64,000 nucleotides of DNA from the NCBI GenBank assembly GCA_002269645.1, contig NIVC01001131.1:62001-126000 (forward strand), in the 5' to 3' direction. The position numbers and the translations under genes were made by a program. Below the pieces are notes generated by a model. The model made no database searches and was not told where the DNA came from. It saw nothing but the letters and a program-made list of their open reading frames with translations. Source of the stretch: Macrostomum lignano (lineage: Eukaryota). Below, piece after piece: positions 45,544 through 61,802 of the stretch (position 1 is the first letter of the stretch; the number at the start of each line of letters is the position of its first letter).

Positions 45544-46845
45544 ACTACTATGGACGCATTTTTCCGTCGATTTTGGAGGTGGGGTGGGTGTCAACCCTCC
45601 TCGCCTCTCATTGGCTGGCGCCCCGATCACTAGGTGATCGATACCCGTATCGATATCGGCGCTCGGCGCGCGCGCGCCGCAGGCGCATGGCGCCAAGCGC
45701 CGACCAGCCGCAGGCGCACCCTCCCGATATGTACCCCGATATGTATGCCCTCCCTCCAGAGCAGCAGGCGCCCATGCCGCAGGCGCCCCGATGTACACTC
45801 TCCCCAGTACACTCTCCCCAGTACACTCTCCCGATATGTACGATATGTAGTCAATGATATTAGGCTAGTGAAAACTACTTATAGTAGGTGAAATTGTGTA
45901 TATTTACATAAAAAAAGTAGGCAAAACATATTGGTAGGTGTAAAAAATGGTGCATAATGCAAAATAAAATGTACATATTGGTGCATATGAGCAGCAAAAA
46001 ACACACAATGTAGGTGCAAATTATTGATATATTGGCAGACGGTAAAGCAGACATGATAGCAGGTACATATCGCATTATTAGTGTAGTAGGCGCTAATAAA
46101 ACATAGGCGGAAATACACACAGTATAATGCAGGTGCATACATACACACAATGTAGGTGCAAATTGAGTATAATACAGGAAAATTACATAGCATATAATGT
46201 AGGCGCATTTTAAACGATACATTTTGCATATTAACCCGCAGGCACAAAGTATATATCGGTCATAGGCTAAAATACACACACTGCAAATTGAGTATAATGC
46301 AGGAAAATTGTGACATATACAACATATGTATGCAAAATTAAGCATATAATGTAGGTGCAAAGTAACCACCGGCCTCTAGTAATGAGACACGCCCCCAGAG
46401 CCAGGGCCGGGGGATCCTAGCGGAGTACAGTTCAGGTAGGAGCGTTCCTAGTCTGCAACCCATAGCTTCCAAATAGGGTACGAGGGGCCAATGTTTCGAG
46501 AGGGGATCCTCAGTACAGTGCGGGCAGAGAGAAATTCCAATTCCTCCCCAAGCCCCAAATAAGGTTTTTTCAAGGGGATCCCAAGTACAGTGCGCTCCCG
46601 GGTGTCAAATGATGAAGGAATCCCGCCCCCCAATGCACAGTGCGCTCCCGGGTGTCAAATGATGCCCCAATGTACAGTGGAGGTAGAGTAACAGACCGCA
46701 TACAAAGAGAATTCCAGTCAAACTTTACCGCAGCTCCCACCCCAAATGAGGGTTTTAGTGGATCCCCAGAGGGTAGCTCTCCAAGTTGAGGGATCCCCCC
46801 AGTGTGTTGCGAGGCCCAAGTACAGTGCAGGCAGAGAGTAACAGA
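45544..46845 (+). repeat. Left terminal inverted repeat (~1.3 kb)
   Basis: Colinear reverse complement of 52940-54366 with indels, e.g. GTCAACCCTCCTCGCCTCTCATTGGCTGGCGC and GGCCCAAGTACAGTGCAGGCAGAGAGTAA. Confidence 0.9.
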
Positions 46846-47047
46846 GTACAAAGAGAAATTCCCTTATCAGTCAAACTCGAGCGCGATCTTCAGCCAGGGC
46901 AGTCTCCTCCTCATCAGCGCTCTCGAAACATCTGTCAAAGTAAAACATATTCAATGTAGACAGATTATATGTAATTTATATACGATTTATATGAAATTAA
47001 GCTTACCAAAAATCGGGTTCGCGCTGTACGGATGCGGCACGCCTCAA

Positions 47048-47545
47048 TTAGCAACCCTCGTCAAACAGATTTCCCCAAGGGTAGGGTTTGATGCTGTCAA
47101 GGCAGTCCTGCAGATTGTCCTCTGTCTTGACTCGCTTGGCTGGAGGGGGTGCCTCAGGTGCCGGCTTGAAGAGCTTGTCCAAACGGGCGGCAAACATCCT
47201 GCGCCACAGTTCAGGCGTGAATTCGATCGTGTAGCGCCAATTAAACTTTGGGTCCTGATTGAGCCAATTGCGCAGCAAACGGATCCTCCCTCGCGAAGCT
47301 TCAACTGCCTTGAAATTGCCCAACAGGACCCGCTTGTTCACGCGAAGGCGGGCAGCAGCCTCCAGGTCAGGGCGCGCAGCTTCGAGCTTCTTCCACTCTG
47401 GCTCGGCCAAGTAGATTGCAGGGAAGCCGTCCTTCCACACTCCAGCCTCGTTGGTGTAGAGACGCCGAATTTCAATCAAGTTGTGTTCAGTTTCAAATGT
47501 GGGCTTCCGCGCCACAAAGTTTTCGTATAGAGAGATAGAAGACAT
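47048..47545 (-). CDS. 165-aa protein with two PC4-like repeats (putative ssDNA-binding protein) and an NLS-like PPAKRVK
   Basis: IEIRRLYTNEAGVWKDGFPAIYLAEPEWKKL resembles the PC4 consensus vDIRe.y....G..kPg.kGIsL..eqW..L; second weaker repeat IRLLRNW...YTIEFTPELWRRM; TATA-like box about 45 bp upstream. Confidence 0.65.
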   Translation of the reverse strand: MSSISLYENFVARKPTFETEHNLIEIRRLYTNEAGVWKDGFPAIYLAEPEWKKLEAARPDLEAAARLRVNKRVLLGNFKAVEASRGRIRLLRNWLNQDPKFNWRYTIEFTPELWRRMFAARLDKLFKPAPEAPPPAKRVKTEDNLQDCLDSIKPYPWGNLFDEGC

Positions 47546-47787
47546 GATTTAGCAGCAGCAGCAGAGAGCTCTCTGACAGCCGTGCAGCGCCTTATATACC
47601 CCCGGATGGAGGGTGGGGTGGGTGATGATTTTGGGGGTGATTTGTGATGATTTTGGTTGGTTTTTGGCGATTGACCAATAACAGGCGAGCTGAGCAGATT
47701 TTTTAGTATATATACAGACCCCCAGAGCCAGGGTAGAGATATAATCCTTCTCTCTCCGCTCGCTCTCTCACGCTCTCTGTTTGCAAA
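47546..47787. promoter_or_regulatory. Bidirectional Pol II-type promoter of the element
   Basis: Minus-strand TATATAAGG (plus strand CCTTATATA near 47590) before the PC4-like ATG; CCAAT near 47676; TATATATA near 47706; GATATAAT near 47738 before the pPolB ATG at 47788. Confidence 0.55.
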
Positions 47788-50700
47788 ATGGCTAAACGCA
47801 GCGCCACCGCAACTGCTTTCCTGGCTGACAAGAGGCAACGTCTTTATGGTAAGTTTTAATTAATTTCTGTCTAGACTGTAGTTGCTAGGGTGGGGGTAGG
47901 GGCTGAGCAGCAGCAGCAGCTGCAGGGTCTGTGGGACCGCAGAGTAAACAACAAAGACTGGGACTGCTGCGACAGCTGCGGGGGTCTAGACTGGAGTTGC
48001 TAGGGTGGGGTGCTGCGGCAGGGTCTGTAACAGAGAGTTGCAGGGGAGGGCTAGACAAGTTTCAGCCGGGTTAGCAGCAGCAGCAGCTGCAGGGTCTGTG
48101 GGACAGCAGAGTAAACAAAGACTGGGGCCTCGGGTGGGGTGTTGTCTAGACAGGGAGGGGTGTGCGGCAGCTGATAAGAAATTGCTGCAAAAACAGACAG
48201 AGAGTTGCTAGGGTGCTGCGGCAGAGTACTGATAAGAAATTGGCGTGGTCTGTAACAGATAATCGTTGGGGAGGGCTAGACAAGTTTCAGCCGGGTGGGG
48301 GGCAGAGAGTTGCTGGGACTGTGTAGCGCGGGGGCATACTGATAAGAAATTGGCAGGGGCTGTCTAGACAGGCTGCAGCTAGGCGCAGATAAGAAATTGC
48401 TGCAAAAAACAGAGAGTTGCTGTGGGAGGGGTGCTGCAGAGTAAACAACAAAGACTGGGACTGCTGCGACAGAGGGTTGCCGGGGCCGGGAAAATGACAG
48501 ATTCTTCTGGTTTTTTTTATCTCCTTGTGTTTTTTCAGACGCGTTTGTCCCGCCAACACAGCCGGAATCTGTTACCGGACCGGGTGAGTTATCCAGCCCC
48601 ATTCCCCAGACAGACCCGGGCTGACTCACACTCCCCCATTCCCCCATGCAGGTTTTACGGCCCGGCTGGATAATCAGCGCGACCTGCCCAAGTTTAGGGC
48701 AAAGGGTGTCGAGTATGTGGTGCGTATTACCAACACCGAAGATTTGCGGGAGGTGTTTGCTGACATGCTCGAAGTCTTTAAGCAGGATTTGGCTGGTGAT
48801 GACTTTATGGCCGCGAAATTCGAGAGCGACAATATGCTCAAAGCAGCCCACACTCCCCCGGTGCGTGCAGCCCGCATGACGGCTGAATTGTTGTTTAAGC
48901 ACATTGACAAGATTGTGCAGTCAGACGCAAGCGTACTGTCGAGCAACTTTTCTATCCGGTTGCTAAAGGCCTGGGTGCCTCGAGGTGGATGTGCTCTCGA
49001 GAACAAGCATCTAGAAGAGAGGCACGCTTTTTCAAAGCACTATGTCCGCATCACCAACACGGACAAGAGATGCCTGCTGCGAGCGCTTGTTGTCGCATGC
49101 GCCTATCTGCAATTTGTGGCCAAGCGCATCACCGAGGATGTGTGGCGCACGATCAAGGCCAATTCGTCCAAGCAGACTAAGCTGGTGGCTGAGCTACAAA
49201 TCGAAGCGGGTCTCTACACGGTAAGTTTCTAGTATTTTTCTGATAAGAATTTTTACACAGTATCGTGGAATACAAAAATTTTCTGATAAGAATTTTTACG
49301 CAGTATCATGGAATACTAAAAGAATTTTACATAGTATCAGGGAATACTAAAAGAAATATTTTACCCCCACACAGACTCTTCAAACCGTCTCGCAGGCCGG
49401 TCCTTTCGGGGTGGATGCACTGCCCGAAGCGATCCGTGCCCTGAACCGGCTGCATCCAGGGCACGATTTTGGTGTACGCGTGTACCAGGCAGAGGAGGCC
49501 AACAGGTGCATCTTCAACCTGCCTGGCACCGAGATTCTGCACCTGCACCTGGTCGAGCAGCACTTTAATGTGGTCACCAAGCTGCCTGCGTTTTTCGGCA
49601 GCCACCACTACTGCGACAAGTGCGAGATGGCCTATGATAGCGACCCCGCCAAGCACAAGTGCGCTGATGCCTGCAGTACATGCAAGACTCCGGGCTCCAA
49701 CTGCAAGACCAACCGCGCATATGTAAGATGCCATGATTGCGGGCTAAATTGCTATAATGCTCAGTGCCTAGAAAATCACAAGCGCAAGAATAAGGCGGGC
49801 AGATCTCGCTGTGATTCGGTCCACGTTTGCGGCACGTGTGGCTATCTAGAAGAACTAAAAGTAGGCCAGCCCCCTGAGCATCAGTGTGGTTACGCCAAGT
49901 GTCCAGTCTGCAAGCAGTACGACGAAACTGCCACCCACGAGTGCTTTGTCACCCCGCCCAAAGCCAAAGAGTCTAGCGCCCCGTATGTTTACTATGATTT
50001 CGAGACGTACTTGGACTCTGGCAAGCAGCACCGGGTACACTTGGTTACGGCTGCCACCTCCTGCGAGGCGTGTCCCAAACTCTTCCCCAGGCCCCGCTGC
50101 AGCGCGTGCGGGGGACTACACAGCTCAGCCAATCGCATTGCGGGACGCGATTTGGCACTCGATTTCACGAGCTGTGTCTCGCACAATGACTGTGCCTGTG
50201 GGATGCGAGAGTTTGTTTCGGTTGGGCCGCACTCTATCGATGCCTTTTACTGCTGGCTGACTAGTGTGTTCAAGCAGGGGGCAATTGCTATTGCGCACAA
50301 TGGCTCTGCGTATGACGCATTCCTCCTGCTCGGCGCCCTACTCAACGGACTGGCCAAGAAGAAGCCGCAAGTGATCTTCCAGAACAGCCGCCTAATGTAC
50401 ATGAAGTGCGACAAGATCACCTTCAAGGACAGCCTCAATTTCATCCCTATTGGTCTGGCGCAATTCCCAAAGGCGCTTGGTTTGGGCACCCAACTGACCA
50501 AAGGAGATTTCCCGCACGTGTTTAACCAGCCGGAAAACTGGGGGTACGTGGGACCCTACTGTTCAATTGATATGTATGGAGGAAAGAAAAACAAGCAGCA
50601 TGACTCCATCGCAGACTGGCTGGCCAAGCAGGAGGGACAGGTGTTTAATTTCAATAAGGAGTACCTGGACTACTGCCTGCAGGACACGTTAATTTTGCGG

Positions 50701-52773
50701 GAAGGCTGTCTAAAGTACACCCACCTGATTAAGGACATTTGCGGACTGGACGCATTTGTTCAATCCAACACCATTGCGGGCTTGGCTATGGCTGTTTTCA
50801 CCACCAAGTTTATGGAGCCCAACACTCTTGGGGTGATTTCCCGCCGGTCCGATGTACAGTCGCACAAGGCGCGGTGCTGGCTTGCGCATTTGAATGCAAC
50901 CGAGTTTGGCGGCCGGTTGCGGACAGCGGACTCGGGCGGCGAGGCTTTCGCCATGGGCCGTAAGGTCGACGGCTTCGACCCAGAGACCAGGACAGTGCTG
51001 CAGTTTCATGGCTGCTTCTACCATGGCTGTCCCAAGTGCTTCCCCAACGGCGACGTGCTGCACCCGCTCAAGAACCAGCCAATGCGGGCGATTTATGAGG
51101 AGACTGAGCGCTTCACCCGGTTGCTCTCCACTGCCTACAATGTGCGTGTTCTGTGGGAGCACGACTATCAGGACGAGGGAGCGCCAGTCCAGCAGCCTAT
51201 ACGCCTGGAGGAAGCCCTGTTTGGCGGCCGTACCGAGGCTTTTGTCCCGCACGCCGAGGCCACCGAGACTGTTGAGCTGCGCTATCGGGATGTGGTAAGT
51301 TTGTACACTTGTACACACAGTTGACATGCGTTTGAGTTTATCTTATCCTCTAATTCTCTATTATCCTTATACTTATCCCCTAGGTGTCGCTCTACCCGAC
51401 TGTCAACAAGTTTGACAAGTACCCTGTCGGGCACCCGGTTCACCACCCCGAGCCTCATCTACTGGATGAGCAGCAGCTGGCCCGGTATTTTGGCATCGCC
51501 GAGGTGTCGATTCTGCCGCCAACCAATCTCCACATCCCGCTACTGCCCGCCAAGATTAACAAGAAGCTGGTTTTCGGCCTCTGCCGCGTCTGCATGGAGA
51601 CCCAGTGCAGCAGCGAGTGTACACACACTGACGCTGAGAGAATGCTCCGCGGCACGTGGTCGACCCCAGAGCTCCACAAAGCCCTGCAGTTGGGTTACAA
51701 GCTGCAGTCAGTTCATGCCCTGGCCTATTGGACCGAGACTCGCACGGGCCTGTTTGCAGATTATGTAAACACTTTTTTGAAGCTCAAAGCCGAGTCTAGC
51801 GGTTCGCCGGGGATGACTGAGGACGCCAAGGCTGCCTACATGGCCAGCTTTTTCGAGCGCGAAGGCGTCCGGCTGGAAAAGGTGGAAGAAAATCCCGGCC
51901 TGCGCTTTGTTGCCAAGATTTTTCTAAACTCGTAAGTTTTTCTACTTGCAGTGGGGGACCGCGTTTTTCTACTTACAGAAGCCAGATATACAAAAATTTA
52001 TTTTTCCCTGCAGGCTCTGGGGCAAATTCTGCCAGCGCGACGACCTGACCTCCACAGAGATTGTGGACAGCTACGAGGCGTGGCTGCAGCGCCTGACAGA
52101 CCCCTCGATCAAGGTCAAGTCGTGCGAGCCAATTGGGGAGAGCTTCATGATGCTCGAGTACAAGCCCCGATTTGGCGGTGCTGGCGAGCGGGCGTTCAAG
52201 TACGCTAATGTACCTATTGGCGTTTTCACCACCTCCCACGCCCGGCTGCGACTCTACGAGGCTCTGGAGGGTCTAGGAACCCGCGTCATTTACGCCGATA
52301 CCGATTCGTAAGTAATTTTTTCACTGTCTCTGTCTCTCTTTCTCCCCTTAACACTTTTTTATCCTTCTCCTCCTCCCAGGGTCGTATACCGCTGCTCCCC
52401 GGGCGAGTACGAGCCTCCGGGCGGTTCGAGTTTGGGGCAGTGGACTGACGAGGTACCTGCTGGCTGCCGCATGGTACAGTTCACCACGGGAGGCCCCAAG
52501 CTCTACCGGTACGTGGTGGAGAAGCTCGACAGGTCGCTGTACTCGGTACTCAAGTGCAAGGGCATCAGAGTCACGCCCGAGATTTCCGAGCGCGAGGACG
52601 AGCTGCAGGAAATTCTGCGCCACGGCGGGACTGTACGGCTGCCCCAGGCCCAGTTCAGGCGCGACAAGGCCAGCTGTACAATTCGGACCCTGGAGATGGA
52701 TAAGACATTCCAACGTGTAATGACTAAGCGAGTGTATGGGGCCGCTAGCCGCCCGTATGGCTTTCGTGAGTGA
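47788..52773 (+). CDS. Protein-primed family-B DNA polymerase (Polinton type), 1269 aa. Exons 47788-47848, 48539-48583, 48652-49220, 49396-51294, 51384-51931, 52014-52307, 52380-52773
   Basis: Six GT-AG introns with matching phases (1,1,0,0,2,2); spliced length 3810 nt with no internal stop seen. ExoI YDFET, ExoII AHNGSAYD, ExoIII YCLQD, motif A YRDV|VSLYP, motif B KIFLNS|LWGKF, motif C YADTDS|VVY, GPKLY, KCKGI. N-terminal vOTU-like region and Cys-rich Zn-binding cluster; VSR-like insert KVDGF...FHGCFYHGC. Confidence 0.93.
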
Positions 52774-52939
52774 GTGAAAGATAAGGATCTGTCTTTTTAC
52801 GCCTCTCTGCCTGGGATTCCCCTAAACTCACCCCAACTGTGCATTCTGGCGGGGATCATTTGACACCTCCCCGTACATTGGACGGGATCCCTTCAAGTGT
52901 TAAAACTCCCATTTGACACCTATTCCCTCGGGGCGGTCT

Positions 52940-54366
52940 CTATTACTCTCTGCCTGCACTGTACTTGGGCCTCGCAACACACGGGGGGATCCCTCAACTT
53001 GGAGAGCTACCCTCTGGGGATCCACTAAAACCCTCATTTGGGGTGGGAGCTGCGGTAAAGTTTGACTGGAATTCTCTTGGTATGCGGTCTGTTACTCTAC
53101 CTCCACTGTACATTGGGGCATCATTTGACACCCGGGAGCGCACTGTGCATTGGGGGGCGGGATTCCTTCCTCATTTAACACCCCGGAGCGCACTGTACTT
53201 GGGATCCGCTAAAACCCCTATTTGTATGCGGTCTGTTATTCTGCCCGCCCTGTGCAATGTGAGGGGTCCTTGATAACCCCCATTTGGGGAGGATTGGAAT
53301 GCTCTCTGCCTGAACTGTACTTGGGATCCCCATGAAAAAACCTTATTTGGGGCTTGGGGAGGAATTTCTCTATGTTACTCCTCTCTGGCCGCACTGTACT
53401 TGGGATCCCCCGGCCCTGGCTCTGGGGGCGTGTCTGTTTACTAGGGAGCCGGTTGCTTGTATTTTACACCTACATTATATGCTTAATTTTGCATATATAT
53501 GTTGTATATGTCACAATTTTCCTGCATTATACTCAATTTTCAGTGTGTGTATTTTAGCCTATGCACTGAAATTTGTACCTGCGGGTTATTAAGCAAAAAT
53601 GTATTGTTTAAAATGCGCCTACATTATATGCTATGTAATTTTAGTGTATTATACTCAATTTGCACCTACAGTGTGTGTATTTTAGCCTATGCACCTACAT
53701 AATTGGAATCTAGAGTGTGTGCAATATACTGTGTGTATTTCCACCTATGTAGCGCCTACAGTACCTGCTTTGTCTATTTCTGTCAATATATTGATGCGCC
53801 TACATTGTGTGTATTTTGCTGCTCATATGCTCCAATATGTACATTTTAATATGCAATATGCGTCATTATTCACACCTACCAATATGTTTTATCTACTTTT
53901 TATGTAAATATACGCAATTTCATCTACTATAAGTAGTTTTCACTAGCCTAATATCGCTGACTAGATATCTGTGTATGCATACATATCGGGAGAGTGTACT
54001 GGGGAGAGTGTACACCCGTACTGGGGAGAGTGTACACTCAGGGTGCTTGCGGCATGGGAGAGTGTGCACTCGGGGTGCCTGCGGCATGGGGCGCCTGCAG
54101 CATGGGCGCCTGCTGCTCTGGAGGAAGGGTGCGCCTGCGGCATACATATCGGGAGGGAGGGCATACATGTCGGTACATATCGGGAGGGTGGGCATACATA
54201 TCGGGGTACATATCGGGAGGGTGCGCCTGCGGCATGGGCGCCTAATTGGCGCCTGATTGGCGCTTGGCGCCACGCGCCTGCGGCGCGCGCGCCAGCCAAT
54301 GAGAGGCGAGGAGGGTTGACACCCACCTCACCTCCAAAAACCCCGGATTCGGGTGTCCTTAGTAGT
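52940..54366 (-). repeat. Right terminal inverted repeat (~1.4 kb)
   Basis: Reverse complement of the left TIR. Confidence 0.9.
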
Positions 54367-55599: not shown

Positions 55600-56025
55600 C
55601 TCGGTTGGTGAGCCACCCTCAGAGATCCTCAGTTGCGAGGCCACCCTCCCAGATGCTCAGTTGCTGGGCCAGCCAGCCTCCAAGATCCTCAGTTGCTAGG
55701 CTACCCTCCCAGATGCTCACTTGCTGGGCCACCTTCAGAGATCCTCAGTTGCTGGGCAAGGCTCCCAGACCCTCAGTTGCTGGGCCAGCCTCCCAGATTC
55801 TCAGTTGCTGGGCCAGTCGCCCAGATCCTCAGTTGCTGGGCCAGCCTCCCAGATCCTCAGTTGCTGGGCCACCCTCCCAGATCCTCAGTTGCTGGGCCAG
55901 CCTCCCAGATGCTCAGTTTCTGGGCCACCCTCAGAGATCCTCAGTAGCTCGGCCACCCTCTCAGATGCTCAGTTTCTGGGCCACCAGCCTCCCAGATCCT
56001 CAGTTGCTGTGCCGGCTTCCCAGAT
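55600..56025. repeat. ~29-bp intronic minisatellite (CCCAGATCCTCAGTTGCTGGGCCAGCCTC)
   Basis: Direct reading; reverse-complement relative at 37085-37190. Confidence 0.9.
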
Positions 56026-56039
56026 CTTCACTGTTTGCC

Positions 56040-56610
56040 TAAAATACACTACGGAGATAGATGTAGGAAGTTTTCATTTGTTTAGCACAAAAATTTTATT
56101 GCTTTTAATAGGAAGAAGACCCAATGTTCATCTTTCGATATGTTGTGCATTTCTTATGGCTTAATTTATTGATACATTTCATAAAACTTTACTATTAGAA
56201 AATTAGCGAGTCTTTTTTATTAATTTTTTCTTCTACATACATTTTCTGTATCTAAAAATCATAGAAATGCACAGCTCGAATCTTTGGTTAAATGAATCTA
56301 TTTATCATCTCTGTTACACTGATAAGTCAGCTAAGAAGGACAATAGATTCATAAAGTCAATGAGCTGAGCCGCGCCATTTCAATGATTTTTAGGCACATG
56401 AGACATGCAAATGTACGTAGAATAAGAATTGAACATTGAATCCTAAATATCAGAACGAAAAGTTTTATGAATCTCAATGGAGCTATAAGAAAGTCACAAC
56501 ATATCAAAAGATGAACATTGCGTCTTTCTCCTATCGAAAGCAATAAAAATTAATGTACTGAAAAAAAATTGAAACCTGCTATCTCTGTACTGTCTTTTTC
56601 AGCGAAAAGT
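56040..56610. mobile_element. Degenerate fold-back/MITE-like element; related partial copy at 54890-55050
   Basis: AATGTTCATCTTTCGATATGTTG versus inverted CAACATATCAAAAGATGAACATT; direct similarity to 54960-54995. Confidence 0.5.
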
Positions 56611-57264: not shown

Positions 57265-60200
57265 TGTCGTATCGCGTGACTCAGCGGGTGTACATTGAGT
57301 TCACTCGCTGTTTTATTGTATCGATTGACTGACAATGCTTCATTGAGCGTGACTAGTGTGTGCGTTCTTTTAAAACCCTTGTGCTTTTATGCATCAATCA
57401 TTCTTACGTTCGCTTGTACCAAAAATATAAAAGTCGTCTAGTGAGCTCAGAGCTCAATACTTTTTGATTTCTCGCACTAACCACTATAGAGATGTTTTAG
57501 TGGCGACGAGGAATGTGGCTGAGCAATGCCTAACCACGCAATCGGAGAATATGAGGACTCCGAGGAAACCTGGAATGAGTACCAGGAGCGTCTGGAGCAA
57601 CATTTCCTGGCACAGGACATCACCGACGAAAGTAAAAAGAGGGCCACCCTGCTGAGCGTCTGCGGTAGGAAAACCTTTCAGTTGGCCAGAAGCCTCTGCT
57701 CTCCAGCCAAAGTCGCGGACAAATCCTATGCCGAAATATGCGAGCTGCTGAGCGCTCATTTCAACCCAAGGCCGAGTGAGATCATTCAGAGGTTCCACTT
57801 CAATAACCGAGTTCAGCGCCCTGGAGAGTCGGTGGCAGAGTTCCTTGCGGAGCTGCGGAAGCTGGCGGAGTTCTGCAATTACGGCGGCAGCCTGTCTGAC
57901 AGGCTGCGCGACAGGCTGGTGTGCGGCATCGCGGACCAGCAAATCCAGCGCCGGCTCCTGATGGAGGCCGAGCTGACCCTCGATACTGCCAAACAGATCG
58001 CGCAAGCGGGCGAGTCAGCAGCCAAAAACTGTCAATCGCTGGGCTCAGCAAAACCTGCGGCAACGACATCAGCATCGTCAGCGACAGAGAGCGACTCCGT
58101 GCTTCGAATGGAACGACAGCGACCGCAAGACAGCCGTCAGTCTGGAATAGAAGGCCGGTGGCGCTGTTTCCGCTGCTTGTCGACTCGCCATCCGGCAGCC
58201 AAATGTCCCTTCGCGGACAAACGCTGTTTCAACTGCAGCAAAACCGGACAAACCGCGAAGGCATGCAAGGCGGTGACACAGCAGCAGCAAATGCACCAGC
58301 TGGTTGACCAGCAGCCTTCACACAGCAGCTCAGCTCAGGCCGCCGAGCCGCCCAGCCCAGCCGAGGTCGCTTATCCCTTCTACCATCTGGGTGCTGACCG
58401 ATCGCAGGCCAGGTTTCCTCCAATCGTGACCTCTGTCTTCATCGAGGAGAAGCGATTCGAGATGGAGGTGGACACGGGGGCATCCGTATCGCTGATGTCC
58501 GAACGTACGTTCAAGGAAAACCTGGGAAGCCGGATGTCTCTGTCTGCGTCAACGGTTCAGCTCAGTACGTACACCGGTCAAACCGTCCGTGTCCTCGGTC
58601 AGCTCTTCGTAAGCGTGCGAGCTTCGCAAGGTTCGGCCGAGGAACAGCTGCCGCTGCTGGTTGTTGCCGGTTGTGGTCCGAGCCTCCTTGGTCGAGACTG
58701 GCTACACCGCCTGCGGCTGGACTGGCAATCTATCAAGCGGATGGAAGAAGCTGATGCAGCCAAGGAGTTGCTACAGGAGTTCTCAGAAGTCTCCCAAGGT
58801 CTGGGCGAGTTCAGCGGCAAGCCGGTGTCCATCAGTCTGAAGGAGAACGCCAGACCAAGGTTCTGTAAGGCGCGGCCGGTGCCGTTTGCGCTGCGCGAGA
58901 AGGTTGAGCAGCAGCTGCAGAAGGAAATCGACCAAGGAATCCTGGTGCCGGTCAAAAATTCCGACTGGGCGTCCCCGATCGTGCCGGTAATGAAGTCCGA
59001 CGGCAGCGTGCGCATCTGCGCTGATTTCAAGCAGTCGGTCAACGCAGCTATCCGGCCTGAGGCTTACCCGCTGCCGAACATCGATGAGCTGTTTTCACGC
59101 TTAGCTGGTGGTAAGAAGTTTTCAAAACTGGATCTGAGCCAGGCATTTTCGCAGCTTCCCCTGGATGAGGATGCTCAAGAGCTCTGTACCATCAACACCT
59201 CGCTGGGACTTCTTTGCTACACCCGTCTGCCTTTCGGCGTGTCGATCGCAACCAGCGTGTTTCAGCGGGTGATGGACAGCTTACTGCGAGGAATTTCGCA
59301 CTCTGCATCCTTCATCGATGATGTCATCATCACAGGCGAAGACGACGCCAGTCACCTCCGCAACCTGAGAGCAGTTCTGAAGGTCTTCAAGGAGTCCGGG
59401 CTGACCTGCAAGCTTGAGAAGTGCACCTTTTTTAAGGACGAAGTCACATACCTAGGCCACCGCATCGACGCCGAAGGGCTGCACCCGCTGGACGATAAGG
59501 TCTGAGCTGTGCTGGACGCGCCTGCACCGACTAACACGACTCAACTGAGGAGCTTCTTGGGCCTTATCAACTACTACGTCAAGTTTTTGCCAAATCTCTC
59601 TAGTGTTTTGGCCCCGCTGCACAGGCTGTTGGAGAAGAACTCAAGGTGGCAGTGGGATCGCAGCGAGGCGGACGCGTTCAGCGCGGCAAAGCAGCTGCTC
59701 ACGCACCCCAGCGTCCTAGTCCACTATAACGCTGCAGAAGAGCTCTACCTGGAGTGCGACGCATCGCAGTACGGGCTCGGTGCCGTCATATTCCACCGTC
59801 GGGACGGCATAGACAAGCCGATCGCGTACGCTTCGCGCAGCCTCAGCTCAGCAGAGAAAAAATACTGCCAGCTGGAGAAGGAGGCCTTGGCGCTAGTTTT
59901 CGGTGTGAAAAAATTCCATCACTATCTGTTTGGTCGGGAGTTCAACCTGTTGACCGACCACCGGCCGCTTCTCGGCCTTCTAGGACAAGAGCGACCGCTT
60001 CCAGCCGTGGCTTCCGGCCGAGTCCAACGATGGGCGTTGCTGCTGACCGCGTACCGGTACCGTCTTGTACACCGCAGCGGGGTCTCCATGCTCCGAGCAG
60101 ACGCCTTAAGCCGCCTTCCTGCATCAGCGGGCCCTAAGGAAGTTCCGGTGCCTCCAGAAGTCGTGCAATTAATGGACTGCCTGGACGCCGGGCCGGTGAC

Positions 60201-61802
60201 TTCATCAGACGTGCGCACCTGGTCCCGCCGCGACCCTACATTGTCACGCGTAATTCTTTACTGTCTCTCGGCCTGGCCAGACCGAGATTCCTGGACTTCT
60301 GATTTGGTGCCCTTTAGGAAACGGCACCAGGAATTGTCAGTTCAAGACGGCTGCGTTCTCTGGGGCAGTCGTGTCGTCATTCCTGAAGTCGGCCAAAGCC
60401 GCTTGCTCGACTGCCTGCATGTTGGACACCTGGAGCATCCCGGATGAAGTCGCTTGCCAGAAGTTACATATGGTGGCCGGGCATGGATCGTGACATTGAG
60501 GCCAAGGCAGCAAGCTGCACGGACTGCCAGAAGCACCAGCAAGCCGGACCAGAAGCTCCGCTGCAGCCATGGCCGCTAACGGCAAGGCCTTGGAGAATCC
60601 ACGTCGATTTTGCCGGTCCCGTCCAAGGTCGGATGCTGCTGGTGGTTGTCGACTCCTTCTCAAAGTGGCTCGATGTGTACGTAACGACAGCGATGACGAC
60701 CTTCGCAACAGTTGAAAAGCTGCGACAGAGCTTCAGCACTCATGGCCTACCGGAGACCATCGTCTCGGACAATGGGCCAAGCTTTGCCAGCTTCGAGTTC
60801 GACGCCTTTTGTGCCAAGAACGGAATTCGGCACATCCGCACGCCTCCCTACCACCCGGCTTCCAATGGCCAAGCTGAGCGAGCAGTGCAAACTGTTACGA
60901 ACTCCCTGAAGAAGCAGGCCAACGACGGCAGCTCCCTGGAGACCCAGCTGGCCAGATTCCTGCTCAGCTACCGTACTACACCGCATCCAACGACGGGAGT
61001 GGCACCGTGTGAGCTGCTGATGCACCGGACGCTGCGCAGCCTGCTCGACGTACCGAGGCCAGACATCGCCAAGCGAGTTCTCGAGAGCCAGGAAAAGCAG
61101 AAGCAGCAGCACGACTCGGGCGCGCAAAGACGAGTCTTCGAGGAGGGCGAGGCGGTGTTCGTTCAAGACTTTAGCCGCGGGAACGAGCGAACCTGGACAT
61201 CGACTATGGTGGTCGGCAAGGAGGGCAGCAACTGGTACAAGTGCATTCTGCCGAACAACCGGATGGTGCGGCGGCACACAGAACAGATGCGAATCGACAA
61301 GACTTCCCAGCGGTCTGGGCCGCTGCAGACGAATCCGGAATCCAACGGTGAGCTCAGGCCTCCACTACCGCAACCGTTGGTTCCGCCGCCACCGCCGCTG
61401 CAGCTGCCGCCGCCACCGCCACCGTCGCCGCCGCCGCCGCCGCCAACGCCGCCGCCACCGTCGCAGCCTCGACCGCTGCAACTTCCAGATCAAGGACCAG
61501 CACAGCTCTCAGAAGATCAAGCAGAGCTCGATCGATTCCCGTCCGCCTAAACTACGATGGGAGAGGTGTCGTATCGCGTGACTCAGCGGGTGTACATTGA
61601 GTACACTCGATGTTTTATTTTATCAATTGACTGAAAATGCCTCATTGAGCGTGAATAGTGTGTGCGTTCTTTTAAAACCCTTGTGCTTTTTATGCCTCAA
61701 TTATTCTTACGTTCGCTTGTACCAAAAATATAAAAGTCGTCTAGTGAGCTCAGAGCTCAATACTTTTTGATTTCTCGCACTAACCACTATAGAGTTGTTT
61801 TA
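57265..61802 (+). mobile_element. Ty3/gypsy (Mag-like) LTR retrotransposon, full length
   Basis: LTRs 57265-57499 and 61567-61802; 5-bp TSD CCCCA at 57260-57264 and 61803-61807; PBS TGGCGACGAGGA at 57501, complementary to the 3' end of tRNA-Ser(GCU); PPT GATGGGAGAGG before the 3' LTR. Confidence 0.95.
57526..61550 (+). pseudogene. gag-pol polyprotein (Gag with CCHC knuckles, PR VDTGA, RT, RNase H, IN) with one in-frame TGA (59503-59505) and one frameshift near 60430
   Basis: CFRC...H...C and CFNC..TGQ...C; MEVDTGASVS; WASPIVPV, FSKLDLSQAF, RLPFG, FIDD; CDASQYGLG, TDHRPL; H...WWPGM...C..C, HVDFAGP, SDNGP, ERAV. Confidence 0.9.

Follow-up and report, generated by a model that had tools for sequence, protein, structure and literature searches.

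Why do introns of a protein-primed DNA polymerase (pPolB) gene interrupt the catalytic motifs of the enzyme? The window, by which we mean the whole 64,000-nucleotide stretch of Macrostomum lignano DNA that was analysed and whose coordinates are used here, carries a gene in which three consecutive introns split polymerase motifs A, B and C. The original prediction, made from the sequence, was that the introns are targeted to or selected at these sites, for example because splicing controls the polymerase, or that they descend from mobile introns.

The polymerase gene and the element that carries it

The gene has seven exons and lies in a Polinton-derived element with the following features (a slash marks an intron position).

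45544..54366, no strand: Polinton-derived element, 8.8 kb, termini ACTACTA...TAGTAGT, 6-bp duplication GATATA on both sides
45544..46850, plus strand: left terminal inverted repeat, ~1.3 kb, degenerate, with internal repeats
46932..47006, minus strand: GT-AG intron of 75 bp, located past the stop of the minus-strand gene, joined in 3/4 runs
47048..47545, minus strand: 165-aa gene, likely a PC4-like single-strand DNA-binding protein (weak match)
47546..47787, no strand: putative divergent promoter region, two TATATA boxes at 47593 and 47707
47788..52773, plus strand: pPolB gene, 7 exons, 1276 codons in frame, matching PF03175; in order, N-terminal region, Cys-rich region, exonuclease, VSR-like insert, polymerase
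47849..48538, plus strand: intron 1, 690 bp, phase 1, in an N-terminus without conservation
48584..48651, plus strand: intron 2, 68 bp, phase 1, in unconserved sequence
49221..49374, plus strand: intron 3, 154 bp, phase 0, in sequence of low conservation
51295..51383, plus strand: intron 4, 89 bp, phase 0, motif A, YRDV/VSLYP
51932..52013, plus strand: intron 5, 82 bp, phase 2, motif-B Ser codon TC/G (N-S), then LWGKF
52014..52307, plus strand: exon 6, 294 nt, symmetric (phase 2-2), so that the frame survives its skipping
52308..52379, plus strand: intron 6, 72 bp, phase 2, motif-C Ser codon TC/G (DTD-S), then VVY
52938..54366, minus strand: right terminal inverted repeat

Re-derivation of limits, phases and donors, with the seven-exon frame open, bears out the predicted splitting of motifs A, B and C and the predicted intron sizes of 72-89 bp. 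Introns 4, 5 and 6 all begin with GTAAGT and end with YAG, and the introns have U2-type features (GT...AG ends, a GTRAGT donor and a pyrimidine tract). Among fetched copies of the element, GT..AG ends occur at 35/36, 36/39 and 40/41 junctions. Introns 5 and 6 do share phase 2, a TC/G codon and the GTAAGT donor, as had been described, but this carries no special meaning, since GTGAGT stands at intron 6 in 9/20 family-A copies (see below) and at intron 4 in family B. TC/G reflects an invariant Ser together with the G that commonly follows an acceptor, and the donor GTAAGT is an ordinary one. Introns 4-6 are ordinary host-type spliceosomal GT-AG introns.

The junctions are used in transcript-like contigs. 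These are assembled contigs only, which cannot measure retention, from sequencing runs whose RNA nature is in every case a guess. Intron 4 is joined out in three and intron 5 in all of the four runs of a first set, guessed to be RNA, and both are joined out in 2/4 runs of a second set; the runs that contribute joins come from five studies. Record 26 of run X6 bridges introns 4, 5 and 6 with contiguous record coordinates, and in record 13 of run X13 the listed pieces are separated by precisely the 294 letters that make up exon 6. Runs X15 and X17, of unknown kind, cover introns without any joint, and intron-containing contigs, which may be DNA or pre-mRNA, are also present in some RNA-like runs. 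With run kinds as guessed, the element is transcribed and its introns are spliced by the host.

The polymerase is of the protein-primed type found in Polintons/Mavericks (PF03175 and motifs). Its HGCFYHGCP motif aligns with homologues, among them P0077, which is named VSR-like; there is no match to a VSR profile. Closest in the databases are relatives labelled Macrostomum lignano, followed by pPolBs 27-30% identical (Pinctada and others), and outside flatworms the best matches are pPolBs of molluscs and other marine animals. The 165-aa gene is assigned weakly (Atlas 0.87 to PC4 clusters; Pfam PC4 E=0.18), and its frame is kept in 6/6 printed copies. Lacking is an integrase, for which there is no frame in the element and no tblastn match, nor do other repeat-bounded copies hold one except within nested foreign elements. 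By inspection of frames, the element also has no room or open frame for a capsid, packaging ATPase or protease. The 6-bp duplication is present at 55 of the 61 loci with both ends present, and the ends read 5'-ACTACTA (family A) or 5'-ACTACGT (family B), not 5'-(AG)3 or (AGT)2. The definition of Polintons/Mavericks includes a retrovirus-like integrase (PMC5499653, available text). The element is a Polinton variant that departs from the family in integrase and end motifs, and not a standard member.

Compared with Polintons/Mavericks bearing VSR-type pPolB2, as portrayed in the accessible text of 10.1101/2023.08.22.554363 and PMC8097293, the element is alike in exonuclease, motifs A/B/C, KxY, putative VSR-like insert, long inverted repeats at the termini and target duplications of 6 bp. 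It differs in being 8.8-9.5 kb, in lacking the integrase and any capsid, ATPase or protease frame, in having 5'-ACTAC termini in place of AG or AGT repeats, and in carrying six introns where intact vertebrate Mavericks are intron-less. Literature searches (exclusive of most subscription papers, supplements and Repbase) returned neither a description of the element nor motif-centred spliceosomal introns in pPolB. Thus, this transcribed, multi-copy, six-intron Polinton derivative appears to be undescribed, though repeat tables or Repbase may list it.

The genome G000 is rich in canonical Polintons that carry an integrase, with at least 150 integrase matches of Polinton type. Among 80 stretches fetched at repeat ends (60 of family A and 20 of family B, drawn from 214 and 149 end matches, respectively), none was a helper with ACTAC ends. 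Elsewhere in the window, a tandem array with a ~30-bp unit (55600-56040) adjoins the element, and Ty3/Gypsy-type gag-protease-RT-RNase H-integrase frames, broken by a stop and a frame change, occupy 57523-61550.

Copies, relatives and the age of the introns

G000 contains 105 matches to exon 6, which fall into tiers near 93-100%, 66-76% and 63%, and of these we fetched 40 copies (20 of family A and 20 of family B). Family-A elements are 8.8-9.7 kb long and family-B elements ~9.5 kb, the latter with ACTACGT ends and 6-bp duplications as in A; exons 3-7 are each open in 5/20 A and 3/20 B copies. Introns 3-6 are at identical positions in the two families, intron 2 aligns between them, and intron 1 has the same phase in both and comes after a basic peptide that is similar. 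None of the 36, 39 and 41 junctions found in the 40 fetched copies is intron-less. The A and B proteins are 64-76% identical, only 113/306 four-fold sites (37%) are identical, and the intron sequences have diverged to near chance. Since positions are identical across this divergence, the introns are old. P0135 and P0136, from other samples and 61-65% identical, are gene calls with exactly the limits of exon 5. Families A and B, P0135 and P0136 form one clade (100/99), and the three motif sites therefore count as one historical draw.

Deletion copies and fold-back copies are common. L033, L034, L045 and L084 are fold-back copies in which two inverted partial polymerase genes lie between intact ends. 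Both families have non-coding, near-perfect palindromic companions (L067-L101 and L143-L162, G000), many of them 8.5-9.6 kb and so matching the coding element in size, which carry the same termini and 6-bp duplications as the coding elements; their arms have no coding similarity in either A or B. Other variants include a family-A form with an extra frame of ~350 aa, without a Pfam match, behind the PC4-like gene (L105:1266-2330, L117, L118), and a family-A copy with a canonical AGTAGT...ACTACT Polinton nested in intron 1 (G000:C271:277000-317500; L021, L056, L104), complete with integrase and a 6-bp duplication. Intron 4 of L037 (family B) opens with the palindrome AGTAGT-GAT-ACTACT, like canonical Polinton ends, which may be chance.

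To look beyond this clade, we collected 79 metagenome loci by conserved peptide patterns, without selecting for introns. In the parts covered, 78 have no intron-sized gap, and L218 is the sole exception. It has three GT-AG introns, all at sites other than those of the window gene: at the Gly of the VSR-like motif, at an Arg three codons before the motif-A Asp, and at the motif-B Gly, 8 nt from the motif-B site of the window gene. Motif C of L218 is unbroken. In the tree of pPolB relatives it groups with P0103 (100/99), apart from the A/B/P0135/P0136 clade; because of this grouping and its different sites, its gains are independent. In another tree the row of L065 was out of frame and is disregarded. 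The L218 motif-B intron (L218:1407-1538) holds a tRNA-Tyr gene (1441-1515).

Further candidates come from protein records. In P0152, P0160 and P0163 the motif-B Asn is followed by T-rich sequence and then by a shifted reading of the motif end; P0138, P0140 and P0212 terminate at N-R or N-S. By their sequences these proteins would fit a phase-2 intron in the identical motif-B Ser codon; they surfaced via a length-limited exon-5 query, which favours genes that end there. A search for the DNA of P0135, P0160, P0212 and viral relatives did not find it. In the tree, the five motif-B proteins that include motif A group with 12 loci lacking introns (97/95), yet the data do not reject (p-AU 0.31) a single clade of motif-B proteins with the window lineage. 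The motifs are uninterrupted in the other pPolB families of G000, among them a decayed relative of VSR type, and intact vertebrate Mavericks are intron-less (PMC8097293, accessible portion). Among the intron-less families, L051-L054 and L062-L064 carry an endonuclease VII domain, and one of these families has dUTPase, deoxynucleoside kinase and A32-like neighbours. Polinton polymerases were probably intron-less ancestrally, with at least two intron gains.

Intron placement and sequence conservation

We scored conservation on a profile of 121 fairly close homologues (P0111 left out), with each exon added to the alignment separately. Introns 4-6 rank among the top 0.3-4% of coding positions and sit on three of the four highest conservation peaks; introns 1-3 lie in unconserved or low-conservation sequence, and no intron interrupts the exonuclease motifs or KxY. 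The predicted enrichment at conserved columns is present for all six introns taken together (Fisher's combined test, P=0.007-0.012), but a test on the mean of the six gives P ~0.5. Post hoc tests give 1e-4 to 1e-3, and motif-based ones 9e-5 (A/B/C) to 8e-4 (eight motifs), for a pattern that concerns one lineage and was noticed in hindsight. The introns of L218 alone give P=0.013-0.076 (Fisher), driven by motif B, two of the three being at moderately conserved sites (tails 0.12-0.49). The enrichment is real but modest when tested fairly. The proposal of targeted or selected placement thus stands insofar as the conservation tests support non-random positions and the pattern recurs in other pPolB lineages; for its mechanism there are rivals, weighed below.

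Descent from mobile introns is not supported. A group I or II self-splicing origin is rejected given no Rfam match and the 72-89 bp size. An intein origin fails on the in-frame stops and on the position of intron 6, which lies 8 nt from the pol-c site YGD/TDS. An introner origin is rejected by a genome search with intron 5, in which 40/40 scored matches are inside element copies. Compared with each other, the introns show no likeness beyond chance (5/55 pairs at p<0.05, lowest 0.01), and they contain neither terminal repeats >5 bp nor a nuclease frame or relic. We also rejected transfer from host polymerases, motifs A/B/C being unbroken in three fetched host PolB genes (by their motifs presumably delta-, alpha- and zeta-like), and an origin of intron 4 by tandem duplication: its start reads VSLY like exon 5, but this is absent in family B and in L028/L029 and is put down to chance.

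Interruptions of polymerase genes are known elsewhere. PolB inteins at sites I-III, pol-c YGD/TDS included (PMC549080, text available to us), and the SPO1 group I intron (PMC2814812, likewise) are also clustered in the active site, but the introns here are non-coding spliceosomal ones of 66-121 bp, lie off pol-c and have no homing nuclease. The chlorovirus DNA polymerase intron (101 or 86 nt) is short, nuclear-type, in a viral family-B gene and patchy among relatives; in the available text of PMC7019647, however, there is one intron, and the gene is that of an algal virus whose PolB is not protein-primed. Dinoflagellate introners that lie in Maverick-Polinton-like proviruses (10.1101/2025.03.18.643946, accessible part) indicate that integrated Polinton-like elements likewise acquire host introns, there as young repeat families, whereas the introns of the present element are old, bear no relation to one another and, going by the genome search with intron 5, occur only inside it.

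Possible routes to introns in catalytic motifs

The explanation that we favour, tentatively and at somewhat less than even confidence, is that host-type introns in an integrase-less Polinton derivative last longest at sites that tolerate nothing but exact removal. The ancestor would have been intron-less, and its descendants would have acquired introns in the ways usual for nuclear genes. Where deletions and fold-backs are frequent, as in this element, sloppy deletion could then purge introns in tolerant loops but could not do so in catalytic motifs, and introns 1-3 may have been kept for 5' expression reasons. The element would be copied by its own polymerase, likely with protein priming from the ACTAC ends, which fits the fold-back companions, and would integrate via an integrase supplied in trans. 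This account builds on the observed splicing, on positions that are fixed in two old subfamilies, on enrichment at conserved sites and on a motif-B intron at a different site in L218. An argument from exact removal has been published for inteins as well as group I introns, in a study that reports spliceosomal introns without a preference for conserved sites (PMC2814812, available text). The account is weakened because no trace of lost introns was found: among the fetched copies there is no loss, exact or sloppy, since the A/B split, and intron 3, which lies in a variable region, survives in A and B alike. The account also leaves the reuse of the identical motif-B nucleotide unexplained.

Chance and hindsight, in which all six introns date from one gain and three fell by luck in motifs of the conserved C-terminal domain with slight help from G/G sites, we regard as a doubtful alternative. 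It accommodates the fair-test P of only ~0.01, the mean-of-six result, the uninterrupted exonuclease motifs and KxY, and the spotting of the pattern after the fact in one lineage. In 14 intron-less relatives G/G is 1.8-fold commoner inside conserved stretches, and the motif-B Ser is encoded as AGY, a ready donor context, in 5/14. However, AG/G is equally common inside and outside conserved stretches, AG/ is not enriched in them, and TC/G is no proto-splice site; proto-splice bias was rejected as an explanation, being at most 1.8-fold. Chance also has to account for hits on three of the four top conservation peaks and for a second hit on motif B in L218, a locus found without selecting for introns.

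Repeated striking of motif B would be expected if nucleases of rival Polintons cut motif DNA and break repair made introns there, each intron conferring immunity as in collaborative homing, though with introns of the spliceosomal kind. pPolBs bear inserted nucleases of VSR or HNH type (10.1101/2023.08.22.554363, accessible text), PolB inteins use three active-site positions (PMC549080, accessible text), endonuclease VII domains occur in two other families of G000, and the integrase matches point to many co-resident elements. Nevertheless, the motif-B sites of the two lineages are 8 nt apart, pol-c is as far from intron 6, and the introns contain no nuclease frame or relic, and we consider this route unlikely. 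The broader proposition that animal Polinton polymerases repeatedly gain motif introns since rival nucleases cut there is improbable to the same degree; if true, it would amount to intein-like site targeting without a mobile intron, extreme in spliced, integrase-less mini-Polintons with palindromic satellites.

A splicing switch, with introns 4-6 retained or exon 6 skipped in some tissues and the active polymerase thereby blocked, has a precedent in the P element, in which germline-limited splicing blocks activity elsewhere. Retention of intron 4, 5 or 6 leads to a stop within 1-9 codons, exon 6 is symmetric, and intron-bearing contigs occur in some RNA-like runs (in X2, a depth of 47.7 in intron 5 against 51.1 at the joint). 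But these contigs may be DNA or pre-mRNA, X6 has no cover inside intron 4, the splice sites are strong consensus ones, and no skipping of exon 6 appears in 8 runs. That retention creates stops is to be expected, because a phase-2 donor GTAA that follows TC is invariably read as a stop, and it does not explain the motif positions, since any unspliced upstream intron would be equally effective. We judge such a switch very unlikely. Escape from small RNAs, in which introns break DNA stretches common to Polinton families and so hide the nascent transcript, would suit the many co-resident pPolB families and the long palindromic satellite copies that could yield double-stranded RNA, but mature mRNA restores the motif sequence and the other G000 families are distant, and it is highly improbable.

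Under the tentatively favoured account of persistence where only exact removal is tolerated, the element integrates without an integrase of its own, which would be supplied in trans. More generally, spliceosomal introns have been reported to lack the preference for conserved sites seen in inteins and group I introns (PMC2814812, in the text available), and pPolB genes, probably intron-less ancestrally and with at least two gains, provide a clean test of survival versus targeting in shaping intron positions.
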